Shown piece after piece: positions 4,568 through 60,021 of a stretch of 64,000 nucleotides of DNA (positions are counted from its first letter, which is position 1; every line of letters starts with the position of its first letter). The position numbers and the translations under genes are program-made. The notes beneath the pieces are model-generated. The model was not told where the DNA came from, searched no databases, and saw nothing but the letters and a program-made list of their open reading frames with translations. Source of the stretch: Gammaproteobacteria bacterium. Its GTDB lineage: Bacteria > Pseudomonadota > Gammaproteobacteria > SZUA-140. The stretch spans positions 365,414-429,413 of the forward strand of contig JADJWH010000001.1 of NCBI GenBank assembly GCA_016716465.1, given 5' to 3'.

Positions 4568-4595
4568 GGGCGGGACGAGCTGAATTTCGTTCGTC

Positions 4596-4663: not shown

Positions 4664-4690
4664 TGACAGAAAAAGGCAGAGAACCGTAGG

Positions 4691-6343: not shown

Positions 6344-6350
6344 TTCCACG

Positions 6351-6454: not shown

Positions 6455-6471
6455 GCCAAGCAAAGTTTTTT

Positions 6472-6625: not shown

Positions 6626-6647
6626 TTTTTCCCTCAGGGGAGGACTT

Positions 6648-7850: not shown

Positions 7851-8465
7851 ATTTTAGTAACTGAGGCCCGATCAGACACACAATGCCTGATTCCAAAGCG
7901 GACGTAGGCGATCGTCGGCTTTGGGCGGCTGCCGGCCAAAAAGCGACCACTCGGCCGGGAAATCCGAACGTCCGCTTTCCGTCGATGCGGTAACCCTCCA
8001 CCCTACGTGACAACTGCACGATTCCAAGAGGCTTAGCTGCTCGACTCGATGCAGGATGGTAGCGGGGGCAGGATATGCTCTGTTCCGACAGTTCCTATGC
8101 GAATTCATCTAAAGTAACCTCACTCTGTCAATAGACGCAAGCGCACCGGTACGGATTTTTTATCATACAAGACAGTGCACTCCAGATAGTATTTACGCCA
8201 TCAAGGATTGTACAACTTGACCAAAGGCTGAGCGTTCGCGATGTTTGATAACTCTGCGTATTCTTCTCAATTTACGCGCGCAGGCGCAGCGTAGGAGATA
8301 CTCGCCAAAGGCCTAAGTATTCTCGCTATGCAGCAGGAGACGGCTGGAAAACCAATGCAATGTTGGCTCAATATGCAAAAGTGATCGACGCGCTACACGG
8401 TGGTTCTGCGGAACTCGATGAGAAGTGCGGGCGAAGCCTGATCATGAATTAAGGAGAAATACAAC

Positions 8466-14399: not shown

Positions 14400-14723
14400 A
14401 TGATTCGCTCGGTGCTAATGTTTCTAAGCATGGAGCTAAAGGAATTTCTCAAGATGGCAACCAAGCGGGAACGCGCTGATGTCGCTGTGGCATGCAGTGA
14501 TTCAGTGTCCTACTTGTATCAGATTGCCGGAGAACACCGCTATGCGAGCCCCTGGATGGCGACGCAGATCGAGCGGCAGACGCGTGCTGTGGCCGACCTT
14601 TCCGATGGCCGATTAGAGCCAGTGCCCCGGGCAAGCATGGTCCGTCACCCTGAAATCTTCTACGACGTCGGTCTGCGAGAAAATACTCAAGAAACGGGTG
14701 GAAACGATGACGGCACCCGATGA
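14400..14723 (+). CDS. Cro-like small DNA-binding protein (start uncertain: 14400, 14430 or 14454)
   Basis: Position divergent from the CI-like repressor and ~100 aa size. No strong motif. Overlaps the ParB-like start. Confidence 0.45.
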   Translation: MIRSVLMFLSMELKEFLKMATKRERADVAVACSDSVSYLYQIAGEHRYASPWMATQIERQTRAVADLSDGRLEPVPRASMVRHPEIFYDVGLRENTQETGGNDDGTR

Positions 14724-16239
14724 ATCGGCACAGGTCCACGGAATATCCCGTGTTGACGTCACCCATATCCACCGCTATTCCCGTAATCCCCGGCGACAGC
14801 AGAATCCAGAATACGACCGCATCAAGGCATCGATTCGAGCTGAAGGCTTGGATCAACCACTGGTGATTTCGCAGGAGCCCGGGGCTTCGGACTACGTCCT
14901 CCACAGTGGCGGCAATACGCGGCTGAAGATCCTTAAAGACTTATTTGAAGAGACTGGAGACGATCGTTTCCGCTGGGTCGACTGTGTCATCAAGCCATGG
15001 TCCCAGGAATCCAGTCTGCTTTTTGCCCACCTGCGTGAAAACGAGCTGCGCGGTGGATTGCCATTTATAGATAAAGCCTTGGCTGTTTTTGACGCAAAAG
15101 CCCTTCTGGAAAAAGAGCTGTCTGTCGAGGCCTTGTCCCAGCGTCAATTGGAAGAGCTGTTCAAAGAGCGGGGATTCGGCCTGAGCCACAGCATGATTTC
15201 CAAAATGGGATATGCCGTTGACACATTGTGGCCCGTAATGCCGAAAGCGTTGGCAGCCGGGTTAGGGCGGCCTCAAGTGGAAAAAATCCGTGCCCTTGAG
15301 CGGGCAGCTCACGCGATCTGGGATCGCCGGCAACTGGGTGAAGACATGGACTTCAACGCCGTGTTTCTTGAGCTGTGTCGACGACATGACTGTTCCGACT
15401 GGGATATCCAGCCGTTGCGCGATGCAATAGAAAACGAAATTGCCGCCGAGTCAGAACAGAATCGTCAGGTGGTTTATCTGGAGATGGAGGCGCAGCTATC
15501 TGGCCGACCTTTCGATTTTGCGAGCCAGACTGAAGAAGGTGTGGAAGAAGAGCAAGACGGGTCATCGGACAAGGTCTGCCGGCAGGACAACAGTCAGTCT
15601 GCTGACATAGACCCGGTCAATGGTTCATCGCCCGGCTGCGAGCCGAAGTCTACCCAGCCCGTTGATAACAATACGCCCAATGGGAAATCCAGAACTAAAA
15701 CACCGGTGCCTGAGATCACCCAGAATAGAAAAACGAGTGTTGAGAGCAGGGATCTACGTTCATTGCGCGCTCAGTTGTGGGAGTGCGCTGCCGCCCTGGC
15801 GGAACACCATGGTTTGGGTGAAGCCGTCATTCAACTGCAGGATCAAGGACTCGGACTGCTGTTGGTCGAGGTTCCTCCGCAGGAGCTGGTCGATACGCTT
15901 GACCCGGATATGCTGGGTTTGGTCTCCGCGCTGTGGTGGCAACTGGCTGCTAGCGCAGAATTAACCGTGGCGCCGATTGATATTGTGCTCCATTACCTGA
16001 ACGAATCTTCAGCGCTGTATGAGGCGCTGGCATCGCATGATGCAGGTTTGCTTTTCAGCAGTGTTTGGACACCGGACCCAGGTCATATGAGCAGCTTGCT
16101 CTGGCAACAGCTCAACCCACCGGATTGGCAGGTTTTACTCCGGATGATGGAAACGTACCGAGCCATAAAACAGCTGGCGTACGACACAGGTATCGAATTG
16201 TGGGTACCAGGCGCGGGTGGTGGCAATGTCGTCCAATAA
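14698..16239 (+). CDS. ParB-like nuclease domain protein (ICE-conserved)
   Basis: N-terminus GISRVDVTHIHRYSRNPRRQ...LDQPLVISQEPG...YVLHSGGNTRLKIL resembles the ParB/Sulfiredoxin N-terminal domain. Acidic C-terminal region. Confidence 0.7.
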   Translation: METMTAPDESAQVHGISRVDVTHIHRYSRNPRRQQNPEYDRIKASIRAEGLDQPLVISQEPGASDYVLHSGGNTRLKILKDLFEETGDDRFRWVDCVIKPWSQESSLLFAHLRENELRGGLPFIDKALAVFDAKALLEKELSVEALSQRQLEELFKERGFGLSHSMISKMGYAVDTLWPVMPKALAAGLGRPQVEKIRALERAAHAIWDRRQLGEDMDFNAVFLELCRRHDCSDWDIQPLRDAIENEIAAESEQNRQVVYLEMEAQLSGRPFDFASQTEEGVEEEQDGSSDKVCRQDNSQSADIDPVNGSSPGCEPKSTQPVDNNTPNGKSRTKTPVPEITQNRKTSVESRDLRSLRAQLWECAAALAEHHGLGEAVIQLQDQGLGLLLVEVPPQELVDTLDPDMLGLVSALWWQLAASAELTVAPIDIVLHYLNESSALYEALASHDAGLLFSSVWTPDPGHMSSLLWQQLNPPDWQVLLRMMETYRAIKQLAYDTGIELWVPGAGGGNVVQ

Positions 16240-26207: not shown

Positions 26208-26775
26208 ACAACGAATGTTGTCTGTCCTCGTGCCCGCATTGTTACTCGCGATAGGCGGGGGTTCTTCCGCATTGGCGGATCTGACAGTGATTTATGACAG
26301 CGGCCAAACCCAACCTTTGTCGCCGTTACTTGGTCCGTTCCAGGCGGATGAAACGCCGTCGACCGATCCTGCCAAAGCAAGCGAACCGAATCCATCGTCC
26401 AAATCTATGCTCGGCCCAGCAGTATTGAGTAACTTGTTGCCGTTGCACTCACCCGGATTGGAGGTCGGCGATAGTGGTGACACTCCACTGAATCCCGAGG
26501 TGCTGACGCGGCTCGCGCAGGGTAATCCGCGCCCGTTTTTTTTAATCGGATCGGACGCGGTGTCATTGCAGTGGCTGGCCTATCACCGGGACACACTCCG
26601 GCGCCTGGGTGCGGCGGGCATGTTGGTGCAGGCCGATACCGAGGCCGACGTTAGACGGGTTGCCGAGGTGGCGCAGGGCTTATCCATCACCCTGGGTTCA
26701 GGGAGTGATCTGGCCGCGGCGCTGGCTATTCATCATTACCCGGTATTGATTAGCCGTGATGGCATCCGACAATGA
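26194..26775 (+). CDS. ICE conjugative-region protein (TIGR03765-like)
   Basis: Signal peptide. Synteny. Confidence 0.4.
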   Translation: MSIRKQRMLSVLVPALLLAIGGGSSALADLTVIYDSGQTQPLSPLLGPFQADETPSTDPAKASEPNPSSKSMLGPAVLSNLLPLHSPGLEVGDSGDTPLNPEVLTRLAQGNPRPFFLIGSDAVSLQWLAYHRDTLRRLGAAGMLVQADTEADVRRVAEVAQGLSITLGSGSDLAAALAIHHYPVLISRDGIRQ

Positions 26776-28901
26776 GCACGCATCCAATGGAAGCGCTGCT
26801 GCGGCCTCCCGTGGAATTGTGGTCCACCTGTACGGCGTTAGCGGCTGGCACGATGGCCTGGCTCGCCCCTTGGGCCTTGATGATGCCATCGGGTATTGCA
26901 ACTGCTACAAGCCTGACCTTTTTCGGTTTTGGCATGTGGCGTGGGCGCCAGGCATGGCGTGTGCTGCGTTACCAGCACAACATGAAGCGACTGCCGAAAT
27001 ATCAAGTGCGGGCCAACCAGATCCCCGTCAGTCATCATAAGCTGTTTTTGGGCAAAGGCTTTCGCTGGACCCAGCAACACACCCAACGTCTTCGCGATAC
27101 CCTGAAGCCCGAGGTTCAACGTTACGTTCAGCCAGGCACGTACTACCAGTGGGCACGGCAAAAGGAGGTAGCCTGGGAATCGATTCCAATCCTGTCTTTA
27201 CTGGCCAAAGCCCTGCGCAGTCGATCCCGTTGGAACCCGCTGGCACCATTACCTGCCGTCGGCGGCAAGCCCGCACTGCACGCGGTTGATCCTCATGAAC
27301 AGCCCGTGTGGATGGATCTGGGCGAACGGGTTGGACACACGCTGGTGTTGGGTACCACGCGCGTCGGTAAGACACGCCTGGCGGAACTGCTGATTACCCA
27401 GGACATCCGTCGGGGTGATGTCGTCATTGTCTTCGATCCGAAAGGGGATGCCGATCTGTTGCGTCGCATCTACGCCGAGGCAAAGCGGGCCGGTCGTCTG
27501 GACGATTTTTATCTGTTTCATCTCGGTTTCCCCGAATTGTCGGCACGCTACAACGCCATCGGTAATTTCTCCCGCATCACCGAGGTTGCGACCCGTATCG
27601 CCAATCAGTTGCCCAATGAGGGCAACTCCGCTGCCTTCAAAGAGTTCGCCTGGCGTTTCGTCAACATCATTGCGCGATCGCTGGTGGCCCTGAAGCGCCG
27701 ACCGGACTACCAACAGATCCGCCGTTACATCAACGACATTGAACCCTTGTTTGTGGAATATGCCGGCCATTGTGCCGACATTGCTGGCATCGATGCCTGG
27801 GCGTCCCTGGTTGAAGAACGCGCAGCGGATATCAAAGAGCGCAACCTGTCCAATGCACTGCGTGGCCGGTCGATGGAAGCCATAGCGTGTATGCGGTTGC
27901 TGCAGGAGAGAGCCATTTATGACCCCGTCCTGGATGGACTTATTTCCGCATTCAAATACGACAAAACCTATTTCGACAAGATTGTGAGTTCCGTTGGCCC
28001 ACTGATGGAAAAACTGACCACCGGCACCATCGCCGCTCTGATATCGCCTGATTACCAGGATGAACACGATGCCAGGCCGATCTTTGAATGGATGGATGTG
28101 GTGCGCCGCAAGGGCATCGTTTATGTGGGACTGGATGCTCTCACCGATACGACGGTGGCCAGCGCGGTCGGGAATTCCATGTTTGCAGATTTGGTGTCTG
28201 TGGCGGGGCATATCTACAAGCACGGCGTCGCGACTAATGGCGCTGATGCGTCAGAATCAGAACGCCAGCGGCATTCCATCCCCACAATCTCCCTGCATGC
28301 GGATGAGTTCAACGAGTTGATCGGTGATGAGTTCGTGCCGCTGTTGAACAAGGCGGGAGGGGCAGGCTTTCAGGTCACGGCCTACACCCAGACCTGGTCG
28401 GACGTGGAAGCGCGTATCGGCAGTCGGGCCAAAGCGGGTCAGGTGGCCGGCAACTTCAACACAATGCTGATGCTACGAGTAAAGGAGCTGGATACCGCTG
28501 CGATGCTGACCGAGCAGTTGCCGCGGGTTGAAGTCTTCACCCTGATGAGTGTCTCCGGCGTCGATGATTCATCGGATCCCGGTTCCGGGGTCGACTTCAA
28601 ATCCCGCAACGAAGACCGGATCAGTGTTTCGGAAGTGCCGATGCTGACCGCTGCCGATATGGTCACGCTGCCCAAAGGGCAGGCCTTCGCGCTGTTGGAA
28701 GGTGGCCAGCTCTGGAAAATCCGTATCCCGTTGCCGGATAACCGTGAGGATACGGCCATGCCAGGCGATTTTGAGGAGATGGCCGATGCCATGCGTCGCA
28801 GCTACATCACCAACGATCACTGGTATCGAGTCACTGACCACTGGTGGCACGCCGTCTCCGAGGCGACGGTCGAATCTGTAGATCCCGATGTGCAAACCTA
28901 A
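26772..28901 (+). CDS. traD: type IV coupling protein TraD (ICE SXT/TOL-type)
   Basis: N-terminal TM helices. Walker A GTTRVGKT. 709 aa. Confidence 0.85.
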   Translation: MSTHPMEALLRPPVELWSTCTALAAGTMAWLAPWALMMPSGIATATSLTFFGFGMWRGRQAWRVLRYQHNMKRLPKYQVRANQIPVSHHKLFLGKGFRWTQQHTQRLRDTLKPEVQRYVQPGTYYQWARQKEVAWESIPILSLLAKALRSRSRWNPLAPLPAVGGKPALHAVDPHEQPVWMDLGERVGHTLVLGTTRVGKTRLAELLITQDIRRGDVVIVFDPKGDADLLRRIYAEAKRAGRLDDFYLFHLGFPELSARYNAIGNFSRITEVATRIANQLPNEGNSAAFKEFAWRFVNIIARSLVALKRRPDYQQIRRYINDIEPLFVEYAGHCADIAGIDAWASLVEERAADIKERNLSNALRGRSMEAIACMRLLQERAIYDPVLDGLISAFKYDKTYFDKIVSSVGPLMEKLTTGTIAALISPDYQDEHDARPIFEWMDVVRRKGIVYVGLDALTDTTVASAVGNSMFADLVSVAGHIYKHGVATNGADASESERQRHSIPTISLHADEFNELIGDEFVPLLNKAGGAGFQVTAYTQTWSDVEARIGSRAKAGQVAGNFNTMLMLRVKELDTAAMLTEQLPRVEVFTLMSVSGVDDSSDPGSGVDFKSRNEDRISVSEVPMLTAADMVTLPKGQAFALLEGGQLWKIRIPLPDNREDTAMPGDFEEMADAMRRSYITNDHWYRVTDHWWHAVSEATVESVDPDVQT

Positions 28902-29719: not shown

Positions 29720-30121
29720 ATGATCGCTCAAGCCGAACAACTGCTGCAACGTGGTTCCAGTGTCACCAGTTCACTGCTGCCGGCGATTTTCGCTATTTTC
29801 AGCCAGTGGCGCCTGACCGGCGCCCAGCAGATGACCCTGTTGGGGCTCAGCAACGAGAAGACGCTCTATAACTGGAAGAGCCAGCCGGAAAAGGCCAAGT
29901 TAACCAGGGACCTGCTGGAACGGGCCAGCTATATCCTGGGGATCTACAAATCCCTGCAAATCCTGTTGCCCGATCAGGCGCTTGCCGATCAGTGGCTGGC
30001 TACCCCCAACGACAACCCGTTGTTCAACGGCACGGCCCCGCTGGACCGGTTGCTGGCCGGACAGGTGGTCGATCTGGCCGTGGTCAGGAATTTCCTTGAT
30101 GCGGAGCGGGGTGGCTGGTGA
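29720..30121 (+). CDS. Xre-like antitoxin with DUF2384 (ParS/MbcA-type) domain
   Basis: 133 aa. Its 3' end overlaps the start of the RES gene (GTGA). C-terminal ...LDRLLAGQVVDLAVVRNFLDAERGG typical of DUF2384. Confidence 0.7.
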   Translation: MIAQAEQLLQRGSSVTSSLLPAIFAIFSQWRLTGAQQMTLLGLSNEKTLYNWKSQPEKAKLTRDLLERASYILGIYKSLQILLPDQALADQWLATPNDNPLFNGTAPLDRLLAGQVVDLAVVRNFLDAERGGW

Positions 30122-30810
30122 TCGATATCGATACGCTACCGGGTAGCGAGACAAATGAACCGGTTTATCGGGTCATTCTGTCACGCTATCCGCAGATCCA
30201 CCTGTTCGAGCGGGTCTCCAATCCACAGGATTGGGACGTGCTCTATGCCGTGGAGTCTCTGACCAACCCCAGGTTACGTGATGAGGTGGGTGATATTCGT
30301 CTGGTGCCACCGGAAGATCGGGTGTATGGCGATGGCGCGTCCTGGATAATGGCTGCCTTCACTCACCCGCCGGTGGATGGACGAGGTGGCCGCTTCAATC
30401 GGGATTTCGGTATCTATTATTGCGCCGCGGATGAGACGGTCGCCATCGCCGAATCATCCTTCCATCGGGCACGATTCTTACGTGAATCAAGAATCGACAA
30501 GACCACCCAGGAGATGCGCGTTATCCGCGCGCAGCTGGGGCCGACAACCCTTCACGATGTACGGCACCTGGTCGGAAACGCTATCTACGATCCCGACGAT
30601 TACGGCGAAGCACAGACACTTGGCTATACGCTTCGGGCTGCCAATAGCTTCGGCATTCACTACCAAAGCGTGAGAGCGAAAGGGGAGTGCTACGGGGTGA
30701 TGCGGCCCAAGGCGCTCACCGATGCCATCCACTGGCGCTATCTGCGTTACCACTATGAACAGGGGTCAGTTGTGAATGTTGAATCCCTAGACGGCAGTGG
30801 CAGGAGGTGA
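30118..30810 (+). CDS. RES-domain toxin (ParT/MbcT-like NAD+-targeting)
   Basis: R...E...S signature in GRFNRDFGIYYCAADETVAIAESSFH, plus downstream H/Y residues. Confidence 0.75.
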   Translation: MIDIDTLPGSETNEPVYRVILSRYPQIHLFERVSNPQDWDVLYAVESLTNPRLRDEVGDIRLVPPEDRVYGDGASWIMAAFTHPPVDGRGGRFNRDFGIYYCAADETVAIAESSFHRARFLRESRIDKTTQEMRVIRAQLGPTTLHDVRHLVGNAIYDPDDYGEAQTLGYTLRAANSFGIHYQSVRAKGECYGVMRPKALTDAIHWRYLRYHYEQGSVVNVESLDGSGRR

Positions 30811-31406
30811 TGGCAATGTATAAAGAGCTGCTGTGGATCTTCACCCAACTACCGGACGATTACATCGTCCTAGATACCGAAACCACCGGCCTACCTGACG
30901 AAAACGGACTGCCGGACATCGTGACTCTTGGCATCACCGTGGTGAGCAATCGAGAGATTGCGGAATCCGTCGAGTTCAAGACAAGACCACAAAAACGCAT
31001 TTCAGAAGAAGCGCAGTCGATACACGGCATTACCAACAAACAGGCTGCCGGATTTGAATCCTTCGATTCACAGTGGCAGCAGATTGCTGAATACCTGAAG
31101 GATCAGCTCATAGTCATTCACAATGCCAGTTTTGACTGGCCGATCCTGTTGGATCACGTGGCCAGGTATGGTTTAACAATGCCACCATTACAAGGTGTAT
31201 TTTGCAGCCAGAAAGCAGCTATTCCTTGGGCACAGGCGACCGATTTGCCGTGCAGTTACAGAGGTCCATCGTTAGACACATTAACAAAAGCACTTGGAGT
31301 CGAAGATCTCAGGGTCAAAGAAGATGGGTTACATGGGGCGAAGATTGATAGCCGGCAGTTGGCTCAGATTGTAGAGGTGATGAGTCAAATTGAAAATATG
31401 GAATAG
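30810..31406 (+). CDS. DnaQ-like DEDDh 3'-5' exonuclease
   Basis: Exo I YIVLDTETTG, Exo II IVIHNASFDWPIL, Exo III LHGAKID. Its start overlaps the RES stop. GC ~48%. Confidence 0.85.
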   Translation: MAMYKELLWIFTQLPDDYIVLDTETTGLPDENGLPDIVTLGITVVSNREIAESVEFKTRPQKRISEEAQSIHGITNKQAAGFESFDSQWQQIAEYLKDQLIVIHNASFDWPILLDHVARYGLTMPPLQGVFCSQKAAIPWAQATDLPCSYRGPSLDTLTKALGVEDLRVKEDGLHGAKIDSRQLAQIVEVMSQIENME

Positions 31407-31572
31407 GTCTTAGCCGTGAATCACAGGGGTTAGAAATGTGCATGTAGGTCCGGCTAGAAATGCGGTCTCTCGATTTTCCAACTTAGGATGACCACGATGA
31501 AGAGAACACAGGAATCAACCCAATCATGGTAAGCAGCGGAAGCGGACAACTAGCGAAGGTTTCAAGATAAAG

Positions 31573-34500
31573 ATGCCACAATCACCTGAACTCGCCGGCG
31601 GCGAAGGTTTCACCTTTGAGGGCGATGCGGCTGCATTCTATCTCACCGCGCTGCTAACCGAGGCTTATGCACCCGGCATCGATGATCGAACCGTTGTTCG
31701 AGTTTCGGTCCAGCAACGCGATTTCGGTGAACCACTGGATGATGTGATCGTCGATTTTGAAGATTCCTCAAAGAACCCCGCCCGACTTAGCCTCCAGGTA
31801 AAGCGCTCGCTCACGATCAGCAGTGCAAAAACGAACAAAGACTTTCGCGAAATCATCCGCGACAGTTGGGCAACTCTCAACAAGTCAGACTTCCGCTTAA
31901 ACGTCGACCGCTACGGGGCCGCAGTTGGTACGGTCACCCCTGCCAAAGAACGAGCATTAAAGACCGTTTGCGATTGGGCCCGCGAAAGCCTGACGGCTGG
32001 CCATTTCCACGCTCGCTTTGCGACGGGCGGCTGCGCCAGCGCTGACATCACAATGGTTAAGGACGACGTCGTTACTCTACTGGAAGCATCGAAGGGGGCA
32101 CCATGCACGAGTGAAGAAGAGTATCAGTTCCTTGCTCACCTCGTGCTCATACAATTCGACTTCCTCCGCGAAGGCGCCACTGATCCCTCTGATGCCATTA
32201 ATCGTATTCAGGGTTGCCTCGCGCCCGAAGACGCAGCCAAGGCGCCGCTTGTCTGGTCTAGAACAGTTCAGCTGGCCCGTTCATCAGCTGGCAAATCAGG
32301 TCGGTTTGATCGCATACGTCTTGTTCGCTTGATCTCACCTGTCGCACGACTCCGCGGCGCGACCTCACTACGCTACGACCTCGATAAGTTAACGGAGCTA
32401 GCGAATAGCTACGCGAACCTCATTCCGGACGATATTGGGGGAACAAGACTCGACCGTATCTCGCTCCTTGAGAGCATGGACGCAAAACTCACCACCGCCC
32501 GTGCCGTCCAGGTCCGCGGACTTCCGGGAAGTGGCAAATCGGTCCTGGTGAGGCGAGCGGTGCAGCGTGCGCTAGAACACGGGCCGATTCTCTTCCTCAA
32601 AGCCGAACAGCTCGAAGGGACCAGCTGGATCAGCTATGCGACCTCGCAGGGTTTATCGGGTGCTCACCTAGAGCAACTTCTCGTAGAGATCGGGGCTGCC
32701 GGTACTCCCGTACTCTTTATCGATGCGATCGACCGCATCGACAAAGAACACCAGCCCATTATCGTCGATGTGATCCATGCCATTTTGGAATCACCACTAC
32801 TTGATAACTGGCGCGTCGTCGTTTCCCTTCGCGATACCGGCATTGAGATGCTTCGCAATTGGTTGGGCGAATTCCTCGATGCCCTGAAGGTAGAAACGCT
32901 AAGCGTTGGTCAGTTGAGTGACGATGAGGCCGAGTCGCTTGTAAAAGCCAAGCCACACCTGAGATCGCTTCTGTTCGGATCCGCTCAAGTGCAAGAAATA
33001 GTCCGACGGCCTTTTTTCGCGAAAGTGCTGAACCAGAGCTACATGGCCGACCCCAGCGCTTCGACATTCGTCCCCCAATCTGAAGTCGATTTGATTGAGA
33101 ATTGGTGGCGGCGGGGCGGCTACAATGAAACGGGTCAAAACGCACTTGAACGCCAGCGCGGACTACTCGACTTGGCAAGTGTTCGTGCCCGCCAGCTTAG
33201 CCAACCGATTGCCCTTGGCCAGTTAACTTCAGTCGCACACATCGATGACCTAAGATCAGACGGCATACTCCAAAATGCCCGTGAAGGGGTTTCCGTCAGC
33301 TTCGCCCACGATATCTTTTTCGAATGGGCCTTCTTTCATGTCCTAGCCGATCGCGGACTACACTGGATGGAGATTATCAAGGCCTGCGGCGAGCCACCGG
33401 CAGTCGCGCGCGTCGTCGAACTCACCTCTCAATGGGAGTATACGCAGGGAACAAACTGGCCGGCGTACCTTGCCCAAACGGAGAATTCGGAACTTAGATC
33501 GCAATGGCTGCGAGCGTGGCTGGTTGGTCCCCTCGGAACTGCGAGATTCGAAGTTGATGAAGACCAATTCGCGACGGCTGTCTTTGCCAACGACTTCAGA
33601 CTTTTCAGGAAGACGCTTGTCTGGTTTCAGGCTGAGAAGACCACCCCGAATGAGAATATCCTTACCGGCGGTCTCCCACGGGAACAACGCCAACGGTTCG
33701 CTGATCTTCTCGGATGGCCGTCCGACTTCTCCGCGTGGCGTCGCCTCATCAATTTTATACTGCGGCGCATTGCAGACATTCCGCAGCGGCTTTATCCAGA
33801 GATCGTCTCCATTTTCGAGGTCTGGCAGAATGCCTTGGCCGACCTTCGCAATCCGACGTCTCATGCACTTCTGCAACAATGCGCTGTCTGGCTCGCCGCC
33901 ATAGACGCGATCAGTGCCGCCGATAGACCTGATGAGAACTCTGCTTATTGGGCGGAGGTTCCCGAATTGGGTGCTCTCAGAAAATCGTTGGGCCAGCTCC
34001 TCTTAAGATCATCGAGAGCCGAGCCGTCTCTTGCAGCCGACTATTTGCGACGGGTCACCAGCTCGGAGCGCATCCGAGACGATGCATTCCATGACATCAT
34101 CGCCTACTCACCCATCCTTGCCCCATCGCTGCCCCAGTCAGTGGTCGAGCTTTCACTAGCGTTCCTGCTAGGGGAGCTTCCGGATGAGCAAGTTGCCCGA
34201 GAAAAACAGGAACTTCATGACACGTCTGAGTGGCGCAAAGCAGTTTTAGCAAAGCCGGAAGCCGAACGGACGCGTAAAGAAAAAATGGCGCTTTCGGGCG
34301 GACTATATCTGCGAACCGTCGGCGATTTCAGCTACCACGACTGGGAAAGGCTTTCGATCCACGACGACCACCGAAGCTTCTGGCCCCCTTCGCCACTTCG
34401 AGAGCCATTTCATTCGCTTTTCCAATCATCTCCCGACCATGCACTGCGGCTCCTTCGAGAACTCTGCAATCATTCGATGACCGCATGGCGACAGCTGCAT

Positions 34501-36957
34501 CATCACTCGCGCGACCGTGGAGGTACCCCTATACCGCTCGAACTCACCTTTCCCTGGGGTACCCAAATTTTCTGGGGTACCGATCGAGAGTATCTTTGGT
34601 TTCGGTCGACGTGGGCACCTAAATCTATCGGCAGCGCATTCATGGCGCTCGAGGAGTGGTGCCTCACCCAGCTTGAGCACAGCCGGACTGTTGACGAGCT
34701 GATCAAGCAAATCGTAGAGGGGAACGAGTGCATCGCCATCCTAGGCATGGCATCAATGCTCGCGCTGCACACCGAGCGGGTGTCTGAAACAACATTGCCT
34801 CTGTTCACCTCGCAGCGCCTGTTGGCCGCGGACCATAATCGAATGGTGCAAGACCTTTCGTCAGCGTCGAACCTGATCGGTTTCACGAGTAGTGCTGACA
34901 AACCCCACATTGAAGCAATCCAGACGGCAAATGCTAGGACTGCCCGTAAGACACAGCTTAGTTGGATGGTACCCAGGTTTGTCTTTGCGACGGAGCCCCT
35001 CCGCGATCGAGCACGCGAAGCGATCCTCAATTTCAAGAACGATCTCCCCTTCCAGTACGAAGAACACCGCGACATTCTGGAGGCGCGGGAACACCTCACA
35101 AAGCAGGCACTCGAATATGCCGAGTTGGCAGAGCCGAAAAACTATCAGGCCTACCGCACCGAAGAGGGTTCGGACCAAGTAGCGATTGTCCACGTCAGCC
35201 CATCTGCCGCTCAGCCTGAAAATATCGCCAGGGCCGAAGAGGCTACTAAGTACCTGGGGCTTACCGGCCTTTGGACGTGGGCATCCAAATCATTCGACGA
35301 GAAGACACTGAACGACACCTATACGATCGAGGATGCCATCGTATTGTCCAAGGAAGCGGACACTAGCGACTTATTCGAAAACCCGAACAGCGAGTATGAA
35401 GAGGAACAGATCGGAATGCGGCGGGGTGCAGTCGCCGCCACAGCGGCCATAGCGCTTAACTTCCGAGAAGGGTGTATACACGAAGACCTTGAGTGGGCTC
35501 GTGATGTCCTAGAACGCGCGATCCGTCTGCCAGAAAAGTTCGATCTGATGTGGTCCCCCGGATCTGTCGTCCCGTGGCACCAGGGAATCTATGCGGCCCG
35601 AGGCCTCGCAGCGGATCTCCGGGAAGATACAGCGGCTCGCAGTACGGCTAATGACCTCCTCACGCTGATCGCGCATCCACTTGAAATTGTTGCGTTGACC
35701 GCTTTCGAAGAGGCCTGCAAGCTCTGGCCTAAGGACTCCAAGTTGACTTGGGCCGCGCTGATCTTGGCGTTTTCACTCTGCCGCGTTCCCTCGCGGCCGC
35801 GTGATCAGCCCCGTCAGCACAGTGAAGCACTCCATACATCAACTGAAGCACAAGCCGCTGTCAACGCGGCGCTTGCGTTCTATGAACATGGAAGCGAATG
35901 GGCGCCTCTCCCGTTACCGCCTCCAGCCTGGATGAAGGTCGAACCCGGGAAGGGCCGGCGTGGGCATCAAAGATACGAAGACTACGACGTGGATGATGCA
36001 ACCGACGCTGCTGAGGTATGGGGTGAACCGGATATCTTCTGGCACTCAAAGCAGGCTGCAGAAGTCCTTCAGCGCATCCCTTTCGACGAGGTTCTTAACA
36101 GCAGCGCAAAGAGCGTGCTTCTCGACTTCCTTGCCAGTGTTCTCGACTGGACCAATCAGAAGAATGCGCCACCGTGGGTAAAGCCCGGACGCCGTGATCG
36201 GTCAGCGACACAAATCTTTGAGTGGACGCATACGCTCGGATCAAGGCTGGGGCACGTGGCTGGCCTTATCCCGCTTGCCGACTTTCAGTCCCGCTTCCTT
36301 GACCCGATTTTAGACCTCGAAGGCGACAATTGCTGGGCTCTCCTCTCGCCATTCACGAGCACCTATGTCTGCGCTTACGTGTACGATGCTCCGGTCGTTC
36401 CAGTCGACACAGTTGCGATACTCGATCTCTGTCTCGGACGGCTCCTCCAGGACCCTACCTTCAAGCGCGACACCTACCGGAGCGGAGAATTTTCAGGCTT
36501 CGATCAACCCGAGCTTATTCGCACGTTGATGTTCGTCTCAGTCGAACGCGCGGATTTGGCCGCTCGCTACGTGAATGGCGACTGGTCCGAAATCAACCGC
36601 ATACTGCCCTTGATTGATCGTTTCATTCGCGCTGGCGGATGGGCTGCTTCAGTGGTGGACCCGTTCTTGACGCTATGTGAACGAGCTAGAGCCAGCTACC
36701 CGGCCGAAGCTTTCGCAGAACAAGTGCTCGCAATTATCGGCGACGGTCCCGACAGCCTTAAAGGCTGGCATGGAACATTCATCCCAGCACGTATTGCAGA
36801 GCTGGTGCAACACTTTGCTCATCGCGACGCGCCGATGACGCTGACGGTGGCACAGAAGTTCCTGCGAATCCTCGACATGCTAGTCGACATGGGAGATCGG
36901 CGGAGTGCGGCGCTTCAGCTTGGCGAGGCGTTCCGTGAGATTCGTGTGCCCGCTTAG
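31573..36957 (+). CDS. 1794-aa STAND-type P-loop NTPase with a ~310-aa N-terminal domain and ~1350-aa helical C-terminus (Avs-like architecture)
   Basis: Walker A VRGLPGSGKSVLV, Walker B VLFIDAIDRID about 60 aa later, VVVSLRDTG, LSVGQLSDDEAESLV, RRPFFAKVL (GxP-like). N-terminus has DDVIVD...LQVKRS, a possible PD-(D/E)xK. Confidence 0.7.
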   Translation: MPQSPELAGGEGFTFEGDAAAFYLTALLTEAYAPGIDDRTVVRVSVQQRDFGEPLDDVIVDFEDSSKNPARLSLQVKRSLTISSAKTNKDFREIIRDSWATLNKSDFRLNVDRYGAAVGTVTPAKERALKTVCDWARESLTAGHFHARFATGGCASADITMVKDDVVTLLEASKGAPCTSEEEYQFLAHLVLIQFDFLREGATDPSDAINRIQGCLAPEDAAKAPLVWSRTVQLARSSAGKSGRFDRIRLVRLISPVARLRGATSLRYDLDKLTELANSYANLIPDDIGGTRLDRISLLESMDAKLTTARAVQVRGLPGSGKSVLVRRAVQRALEHGPILFLKAEQLEGTSWISYATSQGLSGAHLEQLLVEIGAAGTPVLFIDAIDRIDKEHQPIIVDVIHAILESPLLDNWRVVVSLRDTGIEMLRNWLGEFLDALKVETLSVGQLSDDEAESLVKAKPHLRSLLFGSAQVQEIVRRPFFAKVLNQSYMADPSASTFVPQSEVDLIENWWRRGGYNETGQNALERQRGLLDLASVRARQLSQPIALGQLTSVAHIDDLRSDGILQNAREGVSVSFAHDIFFEWAFFHVLADRGLHWMEIIKACGEPPAVARVVELTSQWEYTQGTNWPAYLAQTENSELRSQWLRAWLVGPLGTARFEVDEDQFATAVFANDFRLFRKTLVWFQAEKTTPNENILTGGLPREQRQRFADLLGWPSDFSAWRRLINFILRRIADIPQRLYPEIVSIFEVWQNALADLRNPTSHALLQQCAVWLAAIDAISAADRPDENSAYWAEVPELGALRKSLGQLLLRSSRAEPSLAADYLRRVTSSERIRDDAFHDIIAYSPILAPSLPQSVVELSLAFLLGELPDEQVAREKQELHDTSEWRKAVLAKPEAERTRKEKMALSGGLYLRTVGDFSYHDWERLSIHDDHRSFWPPSPLREPFHSLFQSSPDHALRLLRELCNHSMTAWRQLHHHSRDRGGTPIPLELTFPWGTQIFWGTDREYLWFRSTWAPKSIGSAFMALEEWCLTQLEHSRTVDELIKQIVEGNECIAILGMASMLALHTERVSETTLPLFTSQRLLAADHNRMVQDLSSASNLIGFTSSADKPHIEAIQTANARTARKTQLSWMVPRFVFATEPLRDRAREAILNFKNDLPFQYEEHRDILEAREHLTKQALEYAELAEPKNYQAYRTEEGSDQVAIVHVSPSAAQPENIARAEEATKYLGLTGLWTWASKSFDEKTLNDTYTIEDAIVLSKEADTSDLFENPNSEYEEEQIGMRRGAVAATAAIALNFREGCIHEDLEWARDVLERAIRLPEKFDLMWSPGSVVPWHQGIYAARGLAADLREDTAARSTANDLLTLIAHPLEIVALTAFEEACKLWPKDSKLTWAALILAFSLCRVPSRPRDQPRQHSEALHTSTEAQAAVNAALAFYEHGSEWAPLPLPPPAWMKVEPGKGRRGHQRYEDYDVDDATDAAEVWGEPDIFWHSKQAAEVLQRIPFDEVLNSSAKSVLLDFLASVLDWTNQKNAPPWVKPGRRDRSATQIFEWTHTLGSRLGHVAGLIPLADFQSRFLDPILDLEGDNCWALLSPFTSTYVCAYVYDAPVVPVDTVAILDLCLGRLLQDPTFKRDTYRSGEFSGFDQPELIRTLMFVSVERADLAARYVNGDWSEINRILPLIDRFIRAGGWAASVVDPFLTLCERARASYPAEAFAEQVLAIIGDGPDSLKGWHGTFIPARIAELVQHFAHRDAPMTLTVAQKFLRILDMLVDMGDRRSAALQLGEAFREIRVPA

Positions 36958-37264
36958 CGCGATGAGCATGCTTAGTTGGCTTTGTCTGATTGGACCTGGT
37001 TCTGACAAACGTGGCTGTGAGAGTGATCAGTATGTTGAGCGGCAAACTGTAACGGATCGACGATGTTGATAGCGTTCGGAATAACGTTCGTCGGTTTCTA
37101 ATCCCGCCTTTTCGTATGTGAATATCGAATGTCCACTTTTGAACGTGTGACAGACTTTGTGTGACGACTAGAAAACCACCCCACCCACCGAATAGATTTT
37201 CCATCGTCCACCGCCACTAATTCTCGCACTATGCCCCGTAACAACTTACGGGAGCAGCAGTGCC

Positions 37265-37567
37265 ATGAAACGCCAATTCTGGCCATCTACCTTTCTGATT
37301 CTAGGCTTGTGCGTCGCGCCGGCGGCGTTCGCTGATGCAGACGCCGAGCGTGAGGCGCTGGCGAAAATCATCCATGAGCTCAATGCCCTCGAGACGCTAA
37401 TCAATCGCGCTGAGGTCAATGCTGATCGGGATTCCCGTATCCGATTTCGTTATGACTGGCTGCGTCAGGATCTGAAGCAGATCAAGGACGGCATCCAGTC
37501 ACACATCGATTCTCCCCGCGCGCAGCCTCGCTCATTTCCGCCGTTGCGCGGCGATTACCGTCGATAG
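37265..37567 (+). CDS. RAQPRD-family ICE protein
   Basis: Signal peptide plus SPRAQPRSFPPLRGDY. Confidence 0.8.
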   Translation: MKRQFWPSTFLILGLCVAPAAFADADAEREALAKIIHELNALETLINRAEVNADRDSRIRFRYDWLRQDLKQIKDGIQSHIDSPRAQPRSFPPLRGDYRR

Positions 37568-50443: not shown

Positions 50444-50670
50444 TCGTTTTCGTACCAGCCGGTAGCATCGGTGCCGTCATCGAGTTTCCCTGTTCTGTAA
50501 TTCAGGGCTCCGCCTCGAACAGCACTGGAGACTGCATCATCAGACGTGGTGTCAGCGCTTTCAGCCAGCATACCAAGCATACTGCGCAGTAACTGGCCGA
50601 CCGCTGCAAAAATAGCGAAGACGGCTAGCAATATCTTTTGCAAACGAGGCCTTTCTTTTACTGTTGTCAC
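50440..50670 (-). CDS. small single-TM protein, last gene of the minus-strand defence operon
   Basis: Its ATG overlaps the stop of the DUF499 gene (ATGA coupling). Hydrophobic helix [15 protein letters not shown]. Confidence 0.45.
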
Positions 50671-53516
50671 GACTCTTCCTCAAATTCCGCAGAGCTAAAT
50701 TTCAACACATTACAATTCTCTTTGACAGTTCGCTGCATTGATTCATTGAATCCGTCCTGGCTATTGGCCTCAATCTCCACGGATATCCTGACATTCACGC
50801 CGAGCTTGGCAGTGAACTGCTGTACGACTTCATCCATGATGGTGGCAAAGTCCATTTTGGCTTTGACCGGGTCGAGCGAAATAGTGCCGTAGAACTGCTT
50901 CTTGGTTGCTGGTGGTGTAGTTGTGCCCGCACCTCCTGACCCACCGGGCGATGGGGTTGGTGTTCCCGTGCCGCCCGTTCCACCAGCTGGTGTTGTTGTG
51001 CTTCCGGATTCACCGCCCACACCACCGGGCTCAGGGCTAGGCTGAGGTGCTTGTTGCGTACGCTCGCGGTAAGCGACGGCTGTCTCGCGATCTATCAAGA
51101 GAGAAGATTCATCCACTGTGGCTATAGAACTACGTCCGAACGTGAACCCGAGGTAACGGTCGCCTTCCTTGGCGGAGGCGAAGGCAAAGTAGTCTTCGCT
51201 TTCCACGCCCTGGGTGATGGCATTACGGAAAACGCTATCGTTAACAAGCCGTGGCAGGTACAGGTAGTGACAACAGTCCTGCCAGACCTTCAACGCACTG
51301 ACGTCGTTTATGCCTTCTTTCAGGTACCATTGCTTAAGTACATTGCGAAGGTGAATAGGAGACCACTCGTAGATCATCCACTCCTCTTCCCGCAATTTCT
51401 CCTCGATCGCCTGAATCAAGTTGGGCGCTGCGGGGGAGACGGAAACGACTTCCCAATTGAGAGTCGGCTTGCCCTTTATGAACTCTTCTACGGGGGCGAT
51501 TAACCATTTGTAAGTTTCACGCACCAGTTGGGCAAGCGACTGATCTGCACCATCGCGGTTACGCTTGGCCTGATTCAAATGAGACAAATCCTGATTCAAG
51601 TGGCCATTTTCGATATCTGTGGCAATGGACTGCCACGCCAGGAAAATGCGGGCCTGCTCCTTGAGCCGGCCAACCACATCGTAGTCGGGAGCGAGGAAAA
51701 TCAGGCGATTTTGTTTCTGCCGTGGTTGATCGCCGCGGTTGCGCAAAATCTCTTCTGCGGCAGAAAATGCCTGGTTGGTCTCACTGCGACTGTAGGCCGT
51801 GTTTGTCGGCAACACGACCAGTCGCGGGCCCGTGCCATAGTCATCTGGGACATCGACGGACGGTGTAAAGACATGCACGCCACCGAACTGATGATTGCGC
51901 CCGAAAACCTGGGTGACTCGTGTTTTTAACAATGGCAAAAGTTCATCACGTTCGTTGATGTTCTGCTTGCGGCTCTCCATTTCCCGGCGCAGGTTGGGTT
52001 TGGTATCCAGCCAGAATCGGTCTTTGTCGGAATAAAGATAATGCAGTCGATCACGTAAGCGCTTGAGCACGTCTTCAAATACACCGAGCGTTTGACCGGG
52101 TTGTGCCGCGCCCAGCAGGATGCGTTCGACCTGAACGCCGCGAATCATTTGCTCAGTGGTTGATGGTGCGCTGCCGAGAAAAATGGTCCGGGCAGTGCGG
52201 CGTGCGGCTTGCACGCTGCCGAACAGGGTGTGGTGGCCATCGATGTCATAGGGCGCCGAGCGGGTGCCATCCACTTCCCGTTCAATCACGGGCTCCCACC
52301 CTTGAGGAAGGTAGTGAATGCTCTTGTTGCGCACGTTGCCATCTTCCAGTGGTAATGAGCCAGGCATGATCAGCGCGTCTTTGTTATCTGAATTCCATAG
52401 GCGGTGGATAACAATGGCCATATATTGAAGTACGCCACGGGTGCGCTGGAATTTTTCAAGTGTGGACCAGTCCTCGTACAAGCGATCGAAAATCTCCGGG
52501 TGGATCGGGTAAGACCGGCAAAGGCGCTCAAAGTACTCGTTGGATTGTGTTTCGACTGGAAACTTTTCGGCGTTCTGACGATAAAAGTCAGAGAACTGAC
52601 GGCTGATACCCTCCACCTCTGCGCGTTCACCCGGGTTCTCAAACAATCTGCGACGCACAATCTCGAACGCTTCCTCGGTGCCTACCGGCTTCCAGACGGA
52701 CTCAACTCGTGCGAAGTACTTCTCCAGCGAGTTAAGGGCGCGCTGGCCCATGGTGCCTCCGGCTTCCACCTCCGATTCAGGCAGTGAGGCTAATAGAATG
52801 GCGTTGGGCACAGCCTTCAGGGCTTCGGTGAGCGCCTGGATAAAACTGACGTTGCTATCGAATGTGCCAGCCTTATATTGCTTGCCAAGCTCCAGTTGGC
52901 GAATAAACGCCACCAGCTCATCCACCAGAATCACGCATGGGGCTGCCTTGCTGATCAACTCGGTGAGAACCTCTTTTCCGGGAGAGGTGCCGTCAGCGTC
53001 GCTGTCGGCGACCATCTGATAACCCTCATCCCCCAGCAGTTGCCAGGCCAGCTCGCCCCACAGTGTGTTGGCCGTTACGCTCCCGTACTTCCTGGGCTGG
53101 CTGGGCGACAGTTTTATGCCGTCGATTACCGCCACTCTGGCCGAGGGAAGACTCTGAATACCTGCTTCGTCCAATACCGGAGGAATGCCCGTGAGTTTGT
53201 CGGTGCCCACCTTGCGCGAGGCCAGGTGAAACACGGCCAACAAGGTATGGGTCTTGCCGCCACCGAAGGCTGTTTGCAATTGAATGACCGGGTCGCCACC
53301 AAGCCCGGCCAACCGCTGCGCTACGGAGATGAGCAACAGGCGCATGCCTTCAGTGATATAGGTGCGTGAAAAAAACATCTCCGCATCCTGATACTCTGCA
53401 GTGGCTGTGCCATTGGCTACCTGAGTGATGTCAGCCGCAAACTCGGACTGCTTGAAGGTGCCTTCCAGAACATCCTTGTGCGGTGTGGCAATTTCTCGCC
53501 AGGGTTTCAAACTCAT
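50667..53516 (-). CDS. DUF499 (COG1483) AAA-type ATPase
   Basis: N-terminus [30 protein letters not shown]-loop [13 protein letters not shown]. 949 aa. Confidence 0.8.
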
Positions 53517-53526
53517 GCTTTAGTCC

Positions 53527-56436
53527 TCAAAAATCCAGTCCGAGCTCGGCTTGCGAGCCGCTGTGGCCAACCTCGTGGGAGGCGGTGACAATGGCGTGCC
53601 AGGAACCGATCAATTCGTTGTAGGCGCGGGCATCTTCGGCCCACTTTTTGCGTTCGCACAGGGTGTACAGGTGATAGGCGAGCTGTCGAATGGGTTCGCC
53701 TTTCTCTGGCATCTTGGCCAGTAGTTCGCCAGCGGCGGATTCACCTTGGTTATTAAGACTGCGAATCATCTGGTGGCAGGCTTCCCAGACAGGGGTGCGG
53801 TTGTCTGTAATGGGGTCCCAGTCGGCTTCGTACTCCGCCCATTTCAACAGGCGAACCTTGCCGCCACCGGAATCGACGACCCCGGCTGTATCTACGCCAT
53901 CTACCGTTGTGCCCTTTGCTTGCGCCAGCACGTTCGCTTCACCAAAGGGGCCAATACTCCAGCCGTACTGATCGAACCAGCTGGAGCAGAATTGTGTGTC
54001 GGCATCGAAGCTGCCGGAATCCGGGCTGAGATATTCCGTGATGGCGCGATTTATCAGGATGAGTGCATCATGTACGCTCATCCGTGAGCCATCCTGGTTC
54101 AGTACGGCTTCGTATTTAGAGTAGATGGCCATACCTGGTCCAATCGCGGCCTGGGCTAAATCCACGGGAGCGATGGGTGTGGTACCTGTTTCTCCGCCAA
54201 TCATGGCTTCTAATGCGTCGGGCATCTGTTCACGCAGTTCACGTTGGAAGTCGCGGCGTGAAGCAGAGTCGGCTTCGATTTCACGTTTTTTACATACCAA
54301 AACAACAGATGAAGCGAGAGCATTGGCGCCCGATCCGACCATTCGATTTGCCATTTCAGTGCGCATGGGCCAAGTACCATCAATGGAGAAGCCTGCGCGA
54401 ATAACCGCTTCCAAAAAGGTTTCCCAACCTGTACTTGCAGTGCTGCCTTCTTTGGTTTCCGCCTGCTTAAAAGCGTAATAAATAGTGACGGGAAAGGCCG
54501 GATGACCTTTCTCCGCCAAATTGTGTATTGCCAGAGTCATACCATCTAAAAAGAAGGTTTCAGCCTTTTCTTTGCTTCCGTGCCGATATGGCGTGGCTAC
54601 TAATTCTTCAGCTTTTGGCACGGCCATAGTTAAAAACAAGTCAGGATAAATGGCCCTTAACGACCGGCGCATCCATACATAGAAAAAGTCGGACAAATCT
54701 GCATAACCAATATTGTCATAGTAGGGTGGGTCGGTTGAGATGATTTTATTAATGCTAGTGTTCTGTGTGGCGGCGTCTTGCTGATGAGCGAAACCAAGAC
54801 TATTGGCTGGAGTGTTCGCTAATGCCTTAGATGTCCAATCCGTCATTGCAATCCAATTTCCTGAGGAGTTGCAAAAGGGGTTAGCTTCAACGTAATCCCA
54901 AGTCATGGGAATAGCCTGCCTGCCGAAAGTATTTCGAATAAGTTCTTTGCTCGAGTGCCAGCTACAAATTGATGACCAATAATCTGAAACTTTGTCTGAT
55001 ACAAAGCCCAAATAAACAGCCAAAGCATCTCCGTAAGCGGTCGCACCTTTGCCTCCAGCATTAATACCTATTCCATCGTCTGTCATGCCGGTTGCTTTGG
55101 CATCAGCGATGGCTTTATCGCGGGCTTCCTGCACCAGGTCGGAGAAGGTAGTCAAGGCCACCAGTTGGCGGGGTGTGAAGAGGTCGCCGTATTTACTCAA
55201 ACCATACAGTTGAGTTCTGATATCTCGTGGATTGTGGTTAATCTCAGTTTCCGGTCGCCAGCTTGGCATTGCAGAATTAGCAACTGCTTCTATCTCATCT
55301 GTTGGAGATAGATAGACCCGACCAGATTTTCCTTCCACGACGATCGCCATCAATCGTTGTTTAAATGTGCCTGCCTGCCCCTGTCTTCTGATCTCGGTTA
55401 CGGGGATGGGTGTTTCTGAGACAAGACATTTGAAGTTGCCGCCACGCCCAATTTTTGTACCATCTTTGGCCTCCGCTGGCGGCTTTCCTGCCCGTACCTT
55501 AAAAACATAGCTGTCACTCTCAACTACAGGCACCACATAGGCTTCGTTACCTTTTTTGCTCGATAGAACGAAACTGGAGGCCAGAGGCACATCCACGTGG
55601 CTGAAAGCCGGGTTAGGGCTTTTTACGGTTCTGGCCCAGAGCCAGGCGATAACAGTCAGTACCTGTCCCTGATAAGGTTTCAGGTCGGGTCGTTCAGCGA
55701 CCATCTCTGGCGTGATCTTGATCGTGGGGTAGAGATTACCGATACGCCTGAACGCTTCCTCCCGCATCCAGTGGCCGTAACGACGCACATCCTCGGCCAT
55801 TCCTCTGGCGCCTGACCAGTCATCCATCAGGTTGTCTTGCTTCTCGCCTTTGGGCGGAGGACCTACTGGTCCTTGCCCGGCAAACTTCGGTGGGATCTCA
55901 ATCATGGCTTTGTTGATCATCACGGCCACTGGATTTAAGTCACTGGCATAGCTTTCTAATCCCAGTCGCTGCGCCTCCAGTGGGATCGCCCCTCCGCCGG
56001 CAAATGGATCATGAAAGGCCGGGAGTTTGTCCGGGTTGAACAGTTCTGCTGCTTGGGGGTGATTGCGGTTTAGATAACACGTTTCACGCCAGCTTTCCCA
56101 TATCGCGTCACGAGCCCGACTCAGTACTTCCTGATTATTGATGTTTTCCCACTTCACCAGGTCACGGATTATCTGAAAGAGCTTCTCGCGTTTGATCTCG
56201 GCCTCTTTCTTGTTAACCCCATACTTGAAGCCTTCTCCCTGCTGGTATCCGGGATCATTGACCATTTGCGCAAACAACACAGCCCTTGCTGCTGCCAAAG
56301 GTCGGCGCGCCCACCACAGATGTAAGGTTGATGGATGACCGTGCCGAATTGACTTTTCTCGCGCGGCCGCTGCATTGATGTCATCCAGCGGAAGTGCGAC
56401 CTCAATCAGTTTTTTTGGTGTTTTTATTTCGGCCAT
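53527..56436 (-). CDS. DUF1156-domain N6-adenine DNA methyltransferase (COG1743)
   Basis: N-terminus [36 protein letters not shown]. Motif I DPFAGGGA, motif IV DPPY. Confidence 0.85.
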
Positions 56437-56445
56437 TGATAAACC

Positions 56446-60017
<3,572 letters not shown>

Positions 60018-60021
<4 letters not shown>

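Follow-up and report, generated by a model that had tools for sequence, protein, structure and literature searches.

Does a giant STAND NTPase gene that lies directly downstream of an exonuclease gene, among the conjugation genes of a mobile element, form a two-gene defence system with that exonuclease, or does it act and move by itself? The locus raising this question lies in a 64,000-nt stretch of the genome of a gammaproteobacterium of the SZUA-140 lineage (GCA_016716465.1, contig JADJWH010000001.1, positions 365,414 to 429,413), here called the window, in whose own coordinates positions are given below. An initial annotation, made from the letters alone, had proposed an uncharacterised defence module composed of a DEDDh exonuclease and a STAND protein of 1794 aa. 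We consider it likely that the giant gene encodes a self-contained, single-gene Avs-type pattern-recognition protein, carried as exchangeable cargo of a defence hotspot between the traD and RAQPRD genes of an integrative conjugative element (ICE). The exonuclease, judging from gene order across genomes, does not partner the STAND gene; it completes, as third gene, a conserved Xre-RES-DEDDh trio at the left border of the cargo slot.

Architecture of the giant STAND protein

The protein has three parts, a Cap4-type nuclease head, a STAND NTPase and an all-alpha C-terminus, which map to the window as follows.

31573-36957, plus strand: likely single-gene Avs-type STAND defence protein, 1794 aa (open reading frame, ORF; hidden Markov model (HMM) matches to Avs4 and PDC-M54A; 757 homologues; no conserved neighbour)
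31573-32337, plus strand: Cap4/DUF4297-type PD-(D/E)xK nuclease effector domain, residues ~1-255 (AlphaFold2, Foldseek, PADLOC PDLC02918)
31738-31803, plus strand: catalytic motif D56-D57...D61...Q75-V-K77 in strands beta2 and beta3 of the nuclease core (conservation, secondary structure)
32446-33342, plus strand: STAND NTPase module, residues ~292-590 (Walker A GLPGSGKS at 316-323, Walker B FIDAID at 382-387)
33370-36954, plus strand: all-alpha Trp-rich sensor region, residues 600-1794 (AlphaFold2 prediction, conservation)
34348-35538, plus strand: segment homologous to the EcAvs4 sensor, residues 926-1322 against EcAvs4 771-1177 (phmmer, family profile, NCBIfam Avs4)

The giant ORF lies well outside what chance would give: the database contains 757 homologues, and the best 120 match it at 76-91% identity along its full length. 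Both ORFs exist, and every motif first read from the letters is present in the STAND protein at the expected spacing, including Walker A GSGKS at residue 319, Walker B DAID at 384 (62 aa past K322), SLRDTG at 418, LSDDEAESL at 448 and PFFAKVL at 480; the gap between the two genes is 166 nt rather than the 167 bp given originally. A scan of one genome per species yielded 56 STAND-encoding loci, from Gamma-, Beta- and Alphaproteobacteria, Desulfobacterota, Acidobacteriota, Nitrospinota, Nitrospira, Verrucomicrobiota and Campylobacterota. At 76-91% identity the family spans Nitrosomonas, Desulfurispirillum, Acidobacteriota and Nitrospinota, a conservation across phyla that is unusual. Plasmid relatives are at most 40% identical, no phage genome carries the gene, and the contig index has no record of an identical 1794-aa protein. 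One homologue, on the chromosome of Salinicola tamaricis (L045:10001-15375, 75% identity), has 26 stop codons in single-frame translation and is probably a frameshifted pseudogene.

Pfam gave no match to the N-terminal 310 aa alone, even at E<=10. The AlphaFold2 model of the N-terminal ~300 residues (predicted local distance difference test, pLDDT, 89.8) has an alpha-beta-beta-beta-alpha-beta core, for which the Foldseek matches in the PDB include LmuA of Lamassu (1.4e-6), Cap4 of CBASS (2.2e-6), HamA of Hachiman (3.9e-6) and the N-terminus of SeAvs3 (6.5e-5); the PADLOC model PDLC02918 matches the same domain at 7.8e-27. None of residues D56, D57, D61, Q75 and K77 varies in a set of 38 N-terminal sequences or in a set of 17 full-length ones whose identity goes down to 41%. 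The initial annotation had pointed to a possible PD-(D/E)xK site here (IVD at 59, QVK at 75), and the invariance of D57/D61 and Q75-x-K77 within a Cap4/LmuA/HamA/SeAvs3-like nuclease fold shows that call to be right.

Four family members depart from this arrangement: in place of the Cap4 head (residues 1-~262) they have an unrelated helical domain of ~185 aa whose N-terminus is hydrophobic and which Pfam does not match, while the NTPase and sensor remain 68-80% identical to the window protein. This looks like a swap to another, uncharacterised effector. The genes with swapped heads are the following.

L023:9332-14581
L033:1470-6611
L026:21-5102
L043:9455-14590

In the NTPase, G316-K322, D384, D387, R420 and D421 are invariant across the family, again down to 41% identity. 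Pfam matches of this region to AAA_16/NACHT are sub-threshold only; it aligns weakly with EcAvs4 209-479, and together with the linker it aligns with residues 150-396 of SeAvs7 (9n00) at 7.6e-7, PDB entry 9N00 being the apo form of SeAvs7 (PMC13581612).

The C-terminal region was described at the outset as Trp-rich and helical, and residues 600-1794 are indeed 3.2% Trp (38 W, many of them invariant in the family) and predicted to be all-alpha. Pfam gave no match to the C-terminal 1194 aa alone at E<=10, and the relationship to Avs4 came from other comparisons. phmmer aligned the protein to the EcAvs4 structure sequence (8dgf) at 5.7e-6, and a profile built from 17 diverse family members did so at 4.1e-14, with residues 928-1325 against 771-1177. 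NCBIfam Avs4 matches the whole protein at 1.4e-30 (105.4 bits, residues 926-1319 against profile positions 767-1167), and PADLOC Avs4 matches it at 9.5e-23 (77.5 bits, over 757-1155 of 1570 positions). A further PADLOC model, PDC-M54A, matches residues 11-590, i.e. nuclease plus NTPase, at 8.5e-13. Four general features of Avs proteins are present: an intact Walker A/B NTPase, a fused N-terminal effector, a large C-terminal sensor region (>=400 aa) and location in a defence hotspot. The earlier proposal of an Avs-like antiviral STAND protein is upheld by the matches to the Avs4 HMMs and to the EcAvs4 structure sequence, and the three-part architecture with its EcAvs4-homologous sensor segment supports its reading as an Avs-like sensor with a nuclease.

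Several points weigh against this reading. (i) The catalytic motif is QxK instead of (D/E)xK; the QxK variant is present in active Mrr/Cap4-type nucleases. (ii) The Avs4 match spans only ~400 of the ~1200 sensor residues, and at 105 bits with partial coverage it lies far below the 1500-bit cutoff of the curated model, NF041815, so recognition of portal protein, the trigger of EcAvs4, would be a guess for the window protein. (iii) The AlphaFold2 model of residues 600-1794, made from a shallow alignment of 41 sequences that are 75-87% identical, is a helical solenoid of low confidence (pLDDT 63.9); Foldseek with this model retrieved only generic HEAT/ARM alpha-solenoids, at template modelling scores of at most 0.23. 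(iv) For residues 1325-1794 no relative was detected outside the STAND family. (v) In the 166-nt spacer upstream of the gene no promoter-like site turned up, so that in this ICE the gene may be read through from the operon of the trio; the promoter and terminator scan of 29.6-37.4 kb gave sites no more frequent than in shuffled sequence. (vi) Anti-phage activity, trigger, oligomeric state and DNA cleavage are all properties that we infer for the window protein by analogy with characterised ones.

Among those, EcAvs4 (AVAST type 4; PDB 8DGF, an Mrr nuclease-STAND-sensor protein bound to phage portal) is likewise a single-gene STAND protein with a nuclease N-terminus and collinear domains; its sensor residues 771-1177 are homologous to 926-1322 of the window protein, and the NTPases can be weakly aligned. 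The heads differ, Mrr in EcAvs4 and a Cap4/DUF4297 fold here, and the window protein is 207 aa longer, with about a third of its sensor detectably similar. SeAvs3 (PDB 8DGC) and SeAvs7 (PDB 9N00/9N01/9YIX) are Cap4 nuclease-STAND proteins with tetratricopeptide repeat sensors, and have both the three-part architecture and the effector fold in common with the window protein. Its sensor lacks a sequence match to those of Avs3 and Avs7, however: the SeAvs7 alignment is limited to the linker and NTPase, and PADLOC Avs3 gives no match, as compared to 3053 bits for a true Avs3 found as cargo of the same slot. Avs3 senses terminase, and Avs7 the major capsid protein and EF-Tu. PDC-M54A and PDLC02918 ('DUF626_VIII') are unvalidated PADLOC candidate models, which leave the C-terminus of the window protein unmatched, and PDC-M54 is listed as a multi-gene candidate, whereas the window gene travels alone (see below). 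The label "uncharacterised" has to be dropped for this kind of protein, because the Cap4-STAND-sensor proteins SeAvs3 and SeAvs7 have already been characterised structurally and functionally. A 2026 survey drew at least 90 structurally distinct Avs families from 359,879 representative STAND sequences (PMC13581612). The Cap4-STAND family is very likely already inside that catalogue; a full-text search of the survey for accessions of family members found nothing.

SeAvs3 and SeAvs7 act by trigger binding, tetramer formation and cleavage of double-stranded DNA (PMC13581612; bioRxiv 2026.08.25.746987), and this trigger-induced tetramer with Cap4 cleavage is the best model for the window protein. 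By analogy with SeAvs3, EcAvs4 and SeAvs7, the resting protein would be ADP-bound, with sensor and NTPase keeping the nuclease inactive. On infection, the C-terminal sensor would bind a conserved phage structural protein and relieve this autoinhibition. Given the partial homology to the EcAvs4 sensor, the portal protein is our best guess for the trigger, although a tentative one that we would expect to fail more often than to hold. ATP-bound NTPase domains would then oligomerise, probably into a tetramer, bringing the Cap4 domains together, and the assembled nuclease would cut double-stranded DNA indiscriminately and so abort the infection.

The cargo slot and the Xre-RES-DEDDh trio

The features that frame the STAND gene are the trio, the slot and its right flank.

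29720-30121, plus strand: Xre-family antitoxin, trio gene 1, outside the STAND system (Pfam Xre-like-HTH and Xre_MbcA_ParS_C)
30118-30810, plus strand: RES-domain toxin, trio gene 2 (Pfam RES, 1.8e-28)
30816-31406, plus strand: DEDDh (DnaQ-like) 3'-5' exonuclease, trio gene 3 (Pfam RNase_T, 1.8e-16; motifs)
31407-37170, no strand: variable cargo slot as filled in the window, i.e. the STAND gene with its 166-nt upstream and ~213-nt downstream spacers (homology breakpoints)
37171-37264, plus strand: conserved right flank, the 94 nt upstream of the RAQPRD gene (37265) (sharp conservation onset across unrelated cargo)

Conserved pairing of the exonuclease and STAND genes was searched for from both sides. 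The STAND loci that have a complete N-terminus and upstream DNA of 1 kb or more number 41. In a single one of them, L008 from Pseudohalioglobus lutimaris, which carries the same ICE as the window, an exonuclease homologue adjoins the STAND gene; beside the other STAND genes of this set there is no exonuclease-like ORF, even by phmmer at E<=0.01. When flanking ORFs were clustered over all 56 STAND loci, no neighbour family was common to more than five. Where STAND copies elsewhere are compared with the window, nucleotide homology sets in no more than 19 nt ahead of the ATG and breaks off at the stop codon. The rare adjacency, the lack of a conserved neighbour and the restriction of homology to the ORF together indicate that the STAND gene travels alone. 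For the converse comparison we took 83 loci encoding close relatives of the exonuclease; a STAND gene follows in 4 of 65 loci.

What follows elsewhere is other cargo. Between traD/TIGR03747 and RAQPRD lies a hypervariable slot whose left edge is the trio, at a position that corresponds to GI-Hotspot 8 in Pseudomonas islands (PMC12629846). Homology between the window and ICE relatives with other cargo ends within 17 nt past the stop codon of the DEDDh gene and resumes 94 nt before the RAQPRD ATG. Slot length in these relatives ranges from ~2.7 to 7.6 kb, and ~35 different gene sets occupy the slot, nearly always co-oriented with the trio. PADLOC recognised among them (i) Avs-type proteins, namely the full-length Avs3 already mentioned, a second Avs3-like protein, an Avs1b/LmuA-like STAND protein and Avs2; (ii) Mokosh MkoA, Tmn, DRT3 (Drt3a and Drt3b) and at least four different Gabija pairs; (iii) QatA with QatC, both from a four-gene set, and Shango SngC; and (iv) PDC-S06, PDC-S73, PDC-M65B and a CARF-PD-DExK protein. 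The suggestion that the STAND gene is defence cargo within a conjugation operon thus agrees both with what the slot holds in related ICEs and with a published hotspot.

Three large slot proteins, of 1088, 1443 and 898 aa, have no PADLOC match at E<=1e-3 (apart from one marginal TmtA match) and are candidates for undescribed defence genes; in order of the sizes given, they are located as follows.

L068:1617-4880 (also in L069)
L130:2990-7318 (also in L134)
L114:10869-13562

Two loci show other states of the slot. It is empty in L086 (2179-2453), where a RAQPRD remnant lies ~180 nt past the exonuclease stop. In L131 (896-1234) the exonuclease is directly followed by what remains of a STAND N-terminus, 113 codons at 93% identity, and then by unrelated minus-strand genes; this looks like a cargo replacement caught midway. 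In 30 of 84 loci (e.g. L086:2184-2252, L068:1479-1545) a semi-conserved element takes up the first ~70 nt after the stop codon of the exonuclease, and its end is a short hairpin (GTGTCCG...CGGACAC); the element of the window has diverged. Weak second copies just past the cargo in L068/L069 and L093/L094/L098 are not significant (E~0.2). Site-specific recombination through such an element at both cargo ends was considered and rejected, left-versus-right alignment in 31 loci giving z<=2.5 against shuffles. With no significant repeats at the cargo ends, homologous recombination between the conserved flanks is the simplest route of exchange.

Within the trio, Xre lies directly upstream of RES, the two genes overlapping by 4 nt, and both proteins match their Pfam families above the gathering cutoffs. 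The exonuclease ORF as called runs from 30807 to 31406 on the plus strand; its true start is probably the ATG at 30816, giving 196 aa, because an AGGAGG lies at 30802-30807, inside the 3' end of RES, and a 100%-identical database protein (P0381) has 196 aa. Its DEDDh motif set is complete (DTETTG at 23, HNASFD at 105, HGAKID at 176), and it matches DnaQ/PolC proofreading domains of the PDB at 7e-11 to 2e-9. Wherever the DNA before the exonuclease is long enough to tell, RES immediately precedes it (75/75 loci) and Xre is present as well (52/52), so that the conserved unit is Xre-RES-DEDDh. The exonuclease gene and its 3' spacer (30807-31572) have a G+C content of 0.48 and 0.47, as against 0.56-0.60 in all neighbours. 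The Xre of the window, with its Xre-like-HTH and MbcA/ParS C-terminal domains directly before a predicted RES toxin, is that of RES-Xre type II toxin-antitoxin modules, and plasmid relatives of the RES protein are annotated as RES family NAD+ phosphorylase; unlike the ordinary modules, this one invariably has a third, translationally coupled gene attached. The trio is absent from the plasmid collection, has no match among PADLOC models, and a literature search found no description of it.

The trio persists in decayed chromosomal remnants that lack TraD and TIGR03747 (L058, L059, L084-L086, L092-L098). Chromosomal islets of the Porticoccus type, beside guaA, keep, besides the trio and some cargo, a hypothetical gene of ~210 aa and a RAQPRD remnant of ~30 codons, and look like decayed ICE remnants.

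Might the exonuclease, or the whole trio, be a generic helper of the hotspot for any cargo placed downstream, for example by driving its transcription, by acting as an addiction module that stabilises the slot or by processing the DNA ends that nuclease-type cargo leaves? The invariable linkage of the three genes, their position always immediately upstream of co-oriented cargo, their outliving of TraD and TIGR03747 in the remnants, and a conservation of the exonuclease (77-95%) about equal to that of ICE backbone genes are what such a helper would display. Yet the STAND gene and other cargo (Avs3, Gabija and others) occur and function without the trio, as known or as found here, L086 keeps the trio beside an empty slot, neither Xre nor RES matches a PADLOC model, and RES-Xre pairs are ordinary type II toxin-antitoxin modules. 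On balance we regard a helper role as unlikely.

A pair of further readings, taken jointly, seems to us about equally doubtful: that the trio is a new three-component module, and that the C-terminal extension of the STAND protein senses something other than portal. In the first, the exonuclease may work with the NAD+-targeting RES toxin as a tripartite toxin-antitoxin system, in abortive infection, or as a device that anchors or stabilises the slot, and a module with such a role would explain the survival of the trio in decayed ICE remnants. In the second, the ~470 C-terminal residues without a match might recognise a different trigger.

That the exonuclease and the STAND protein form one two-gene defence system, the exonuclease being a co-effector or a regulator of the STAND protein, was the proposal of the initial annotation, and it did not withstand the search for conserved pairing; absence of such pairing from other genomes is an outcome that the annotation itself had named as refuting. 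In the window the two genes are neighbours in one orientation, separated by 166 nt, the spacer holds no promoter-like site, as noted above, and the same arrangement is found in L008, L057, L059, L060 and L061. Set against this are the adjacency in just 1/41 STAND loci and 4/65 exonuclease loci, the ~35 unrelated cargo sets that follow the exonuclease in the rest of the 65, and the translational coupling of the exonuclease to RES rather than to the STAND gene (Shine-Dalgarno sequence inside the RES 3' end, 5-nt spacing). We now hold such a system to be very improbable. Most improbable of all is a non-immune role in which the protein would serve the ICE as an NTPase for regulation or maintenance, for instance as a signal-transducing regulator like the MalT-type STAND proteins: non-defence STAND clades are interspersed among defence clades (PMC13581612) and the Pfam matches to AAA_16/NACHT are only sub-threshold, but the protein has no DNA-binding output domain, at its N-terminus it has the kind of nuclease fold that is typical for effectors of defence, part of its sensor is homologous to that of EcAvs4, and the gene is missing from most ICE copies, with known defence systems in its place, while being found outside ICEs in many phyla.

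The conjugative element around the slot

The element hosting the STAND gene is an ICE of the ICEclc/PAGI-2 type. Conjugation genes surround the STAND gene, with TraD (TIGR03754) and TIGR03747 upstream and RAQPRD (TIGR01690), TIGR03745, TIGR03750 and TIGR03746 downstream. Its landmarks in the window are these.

6648-7850: tyrosine integrase
26772-28901: TraD (family-model match)
37265-37567: RAQPRD (family-model match, TIGR01690)

G+C content drops at ~6 kb, from ~0.66-0.70 to ~0.50-0.57, beside the integrase gene, and the left end of the ICE is probably in this region, within window positions 1-8000; no tRNA gene was found in the window. Near the integrase end lie ORFs of 1216 aa (8466-12116) and 513 aa (14698-16239) without a Pfam match at E<=1e-5. 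The same ICE carries a second defence-like cluster: at 50667-60923 on the minus strand are a DUF499 protein of 949 aa, a DUF1156 protein of 969 aa, an SNF2/ResIII helicase with NOV_C of 1191 aa and a WYL regulator of 301 aa, after which comes a KAP-family NTPase of 615 aa (61283-63130, plus strand).

The window ICE and the Pseudomonas islands with GI-Hotspot 8 (PAGI-2 and PAGI-3, as well as LESGI-3) have the same backbone gene families and the same variable, defence-rich region between traD and a RAQPRD-family gene (PMC12629846). They differ in that the window belongs to a lineage of marine Gammaproteobacteria with the trio fixed at the left edge of the slot, and in their cargo, here rich in Avs, Gabija, DRT3 and Qat, as opposed to the dominance of CBASS type III in the Pseudomonas islands (PMC12629846).

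Implications for Avs families and ICE hotspots

The analysis removes the exonuclease-STAND system as a false lead and files the giant gene as a likely Avs-type immune sensor, one that the NCBIfam and PADLOC Avs4 models detect only partially. Near-identical copies in distant phyla make this family a convenient test case both for the breadth of one sensor specificity and for the movement of bare defence ORFs. Only for the invariant Xre-RES-DEDDh trio, of all the elements treated here, was no description found. The traD-RAQPRD hotspot extends from Pseudomonas islands to marine ICEs, where it holds at least about 35 alternative cargo sets, and since several large proteins in it go unmatched by PADLOC, the slot is a practical place for finding new defence genes.

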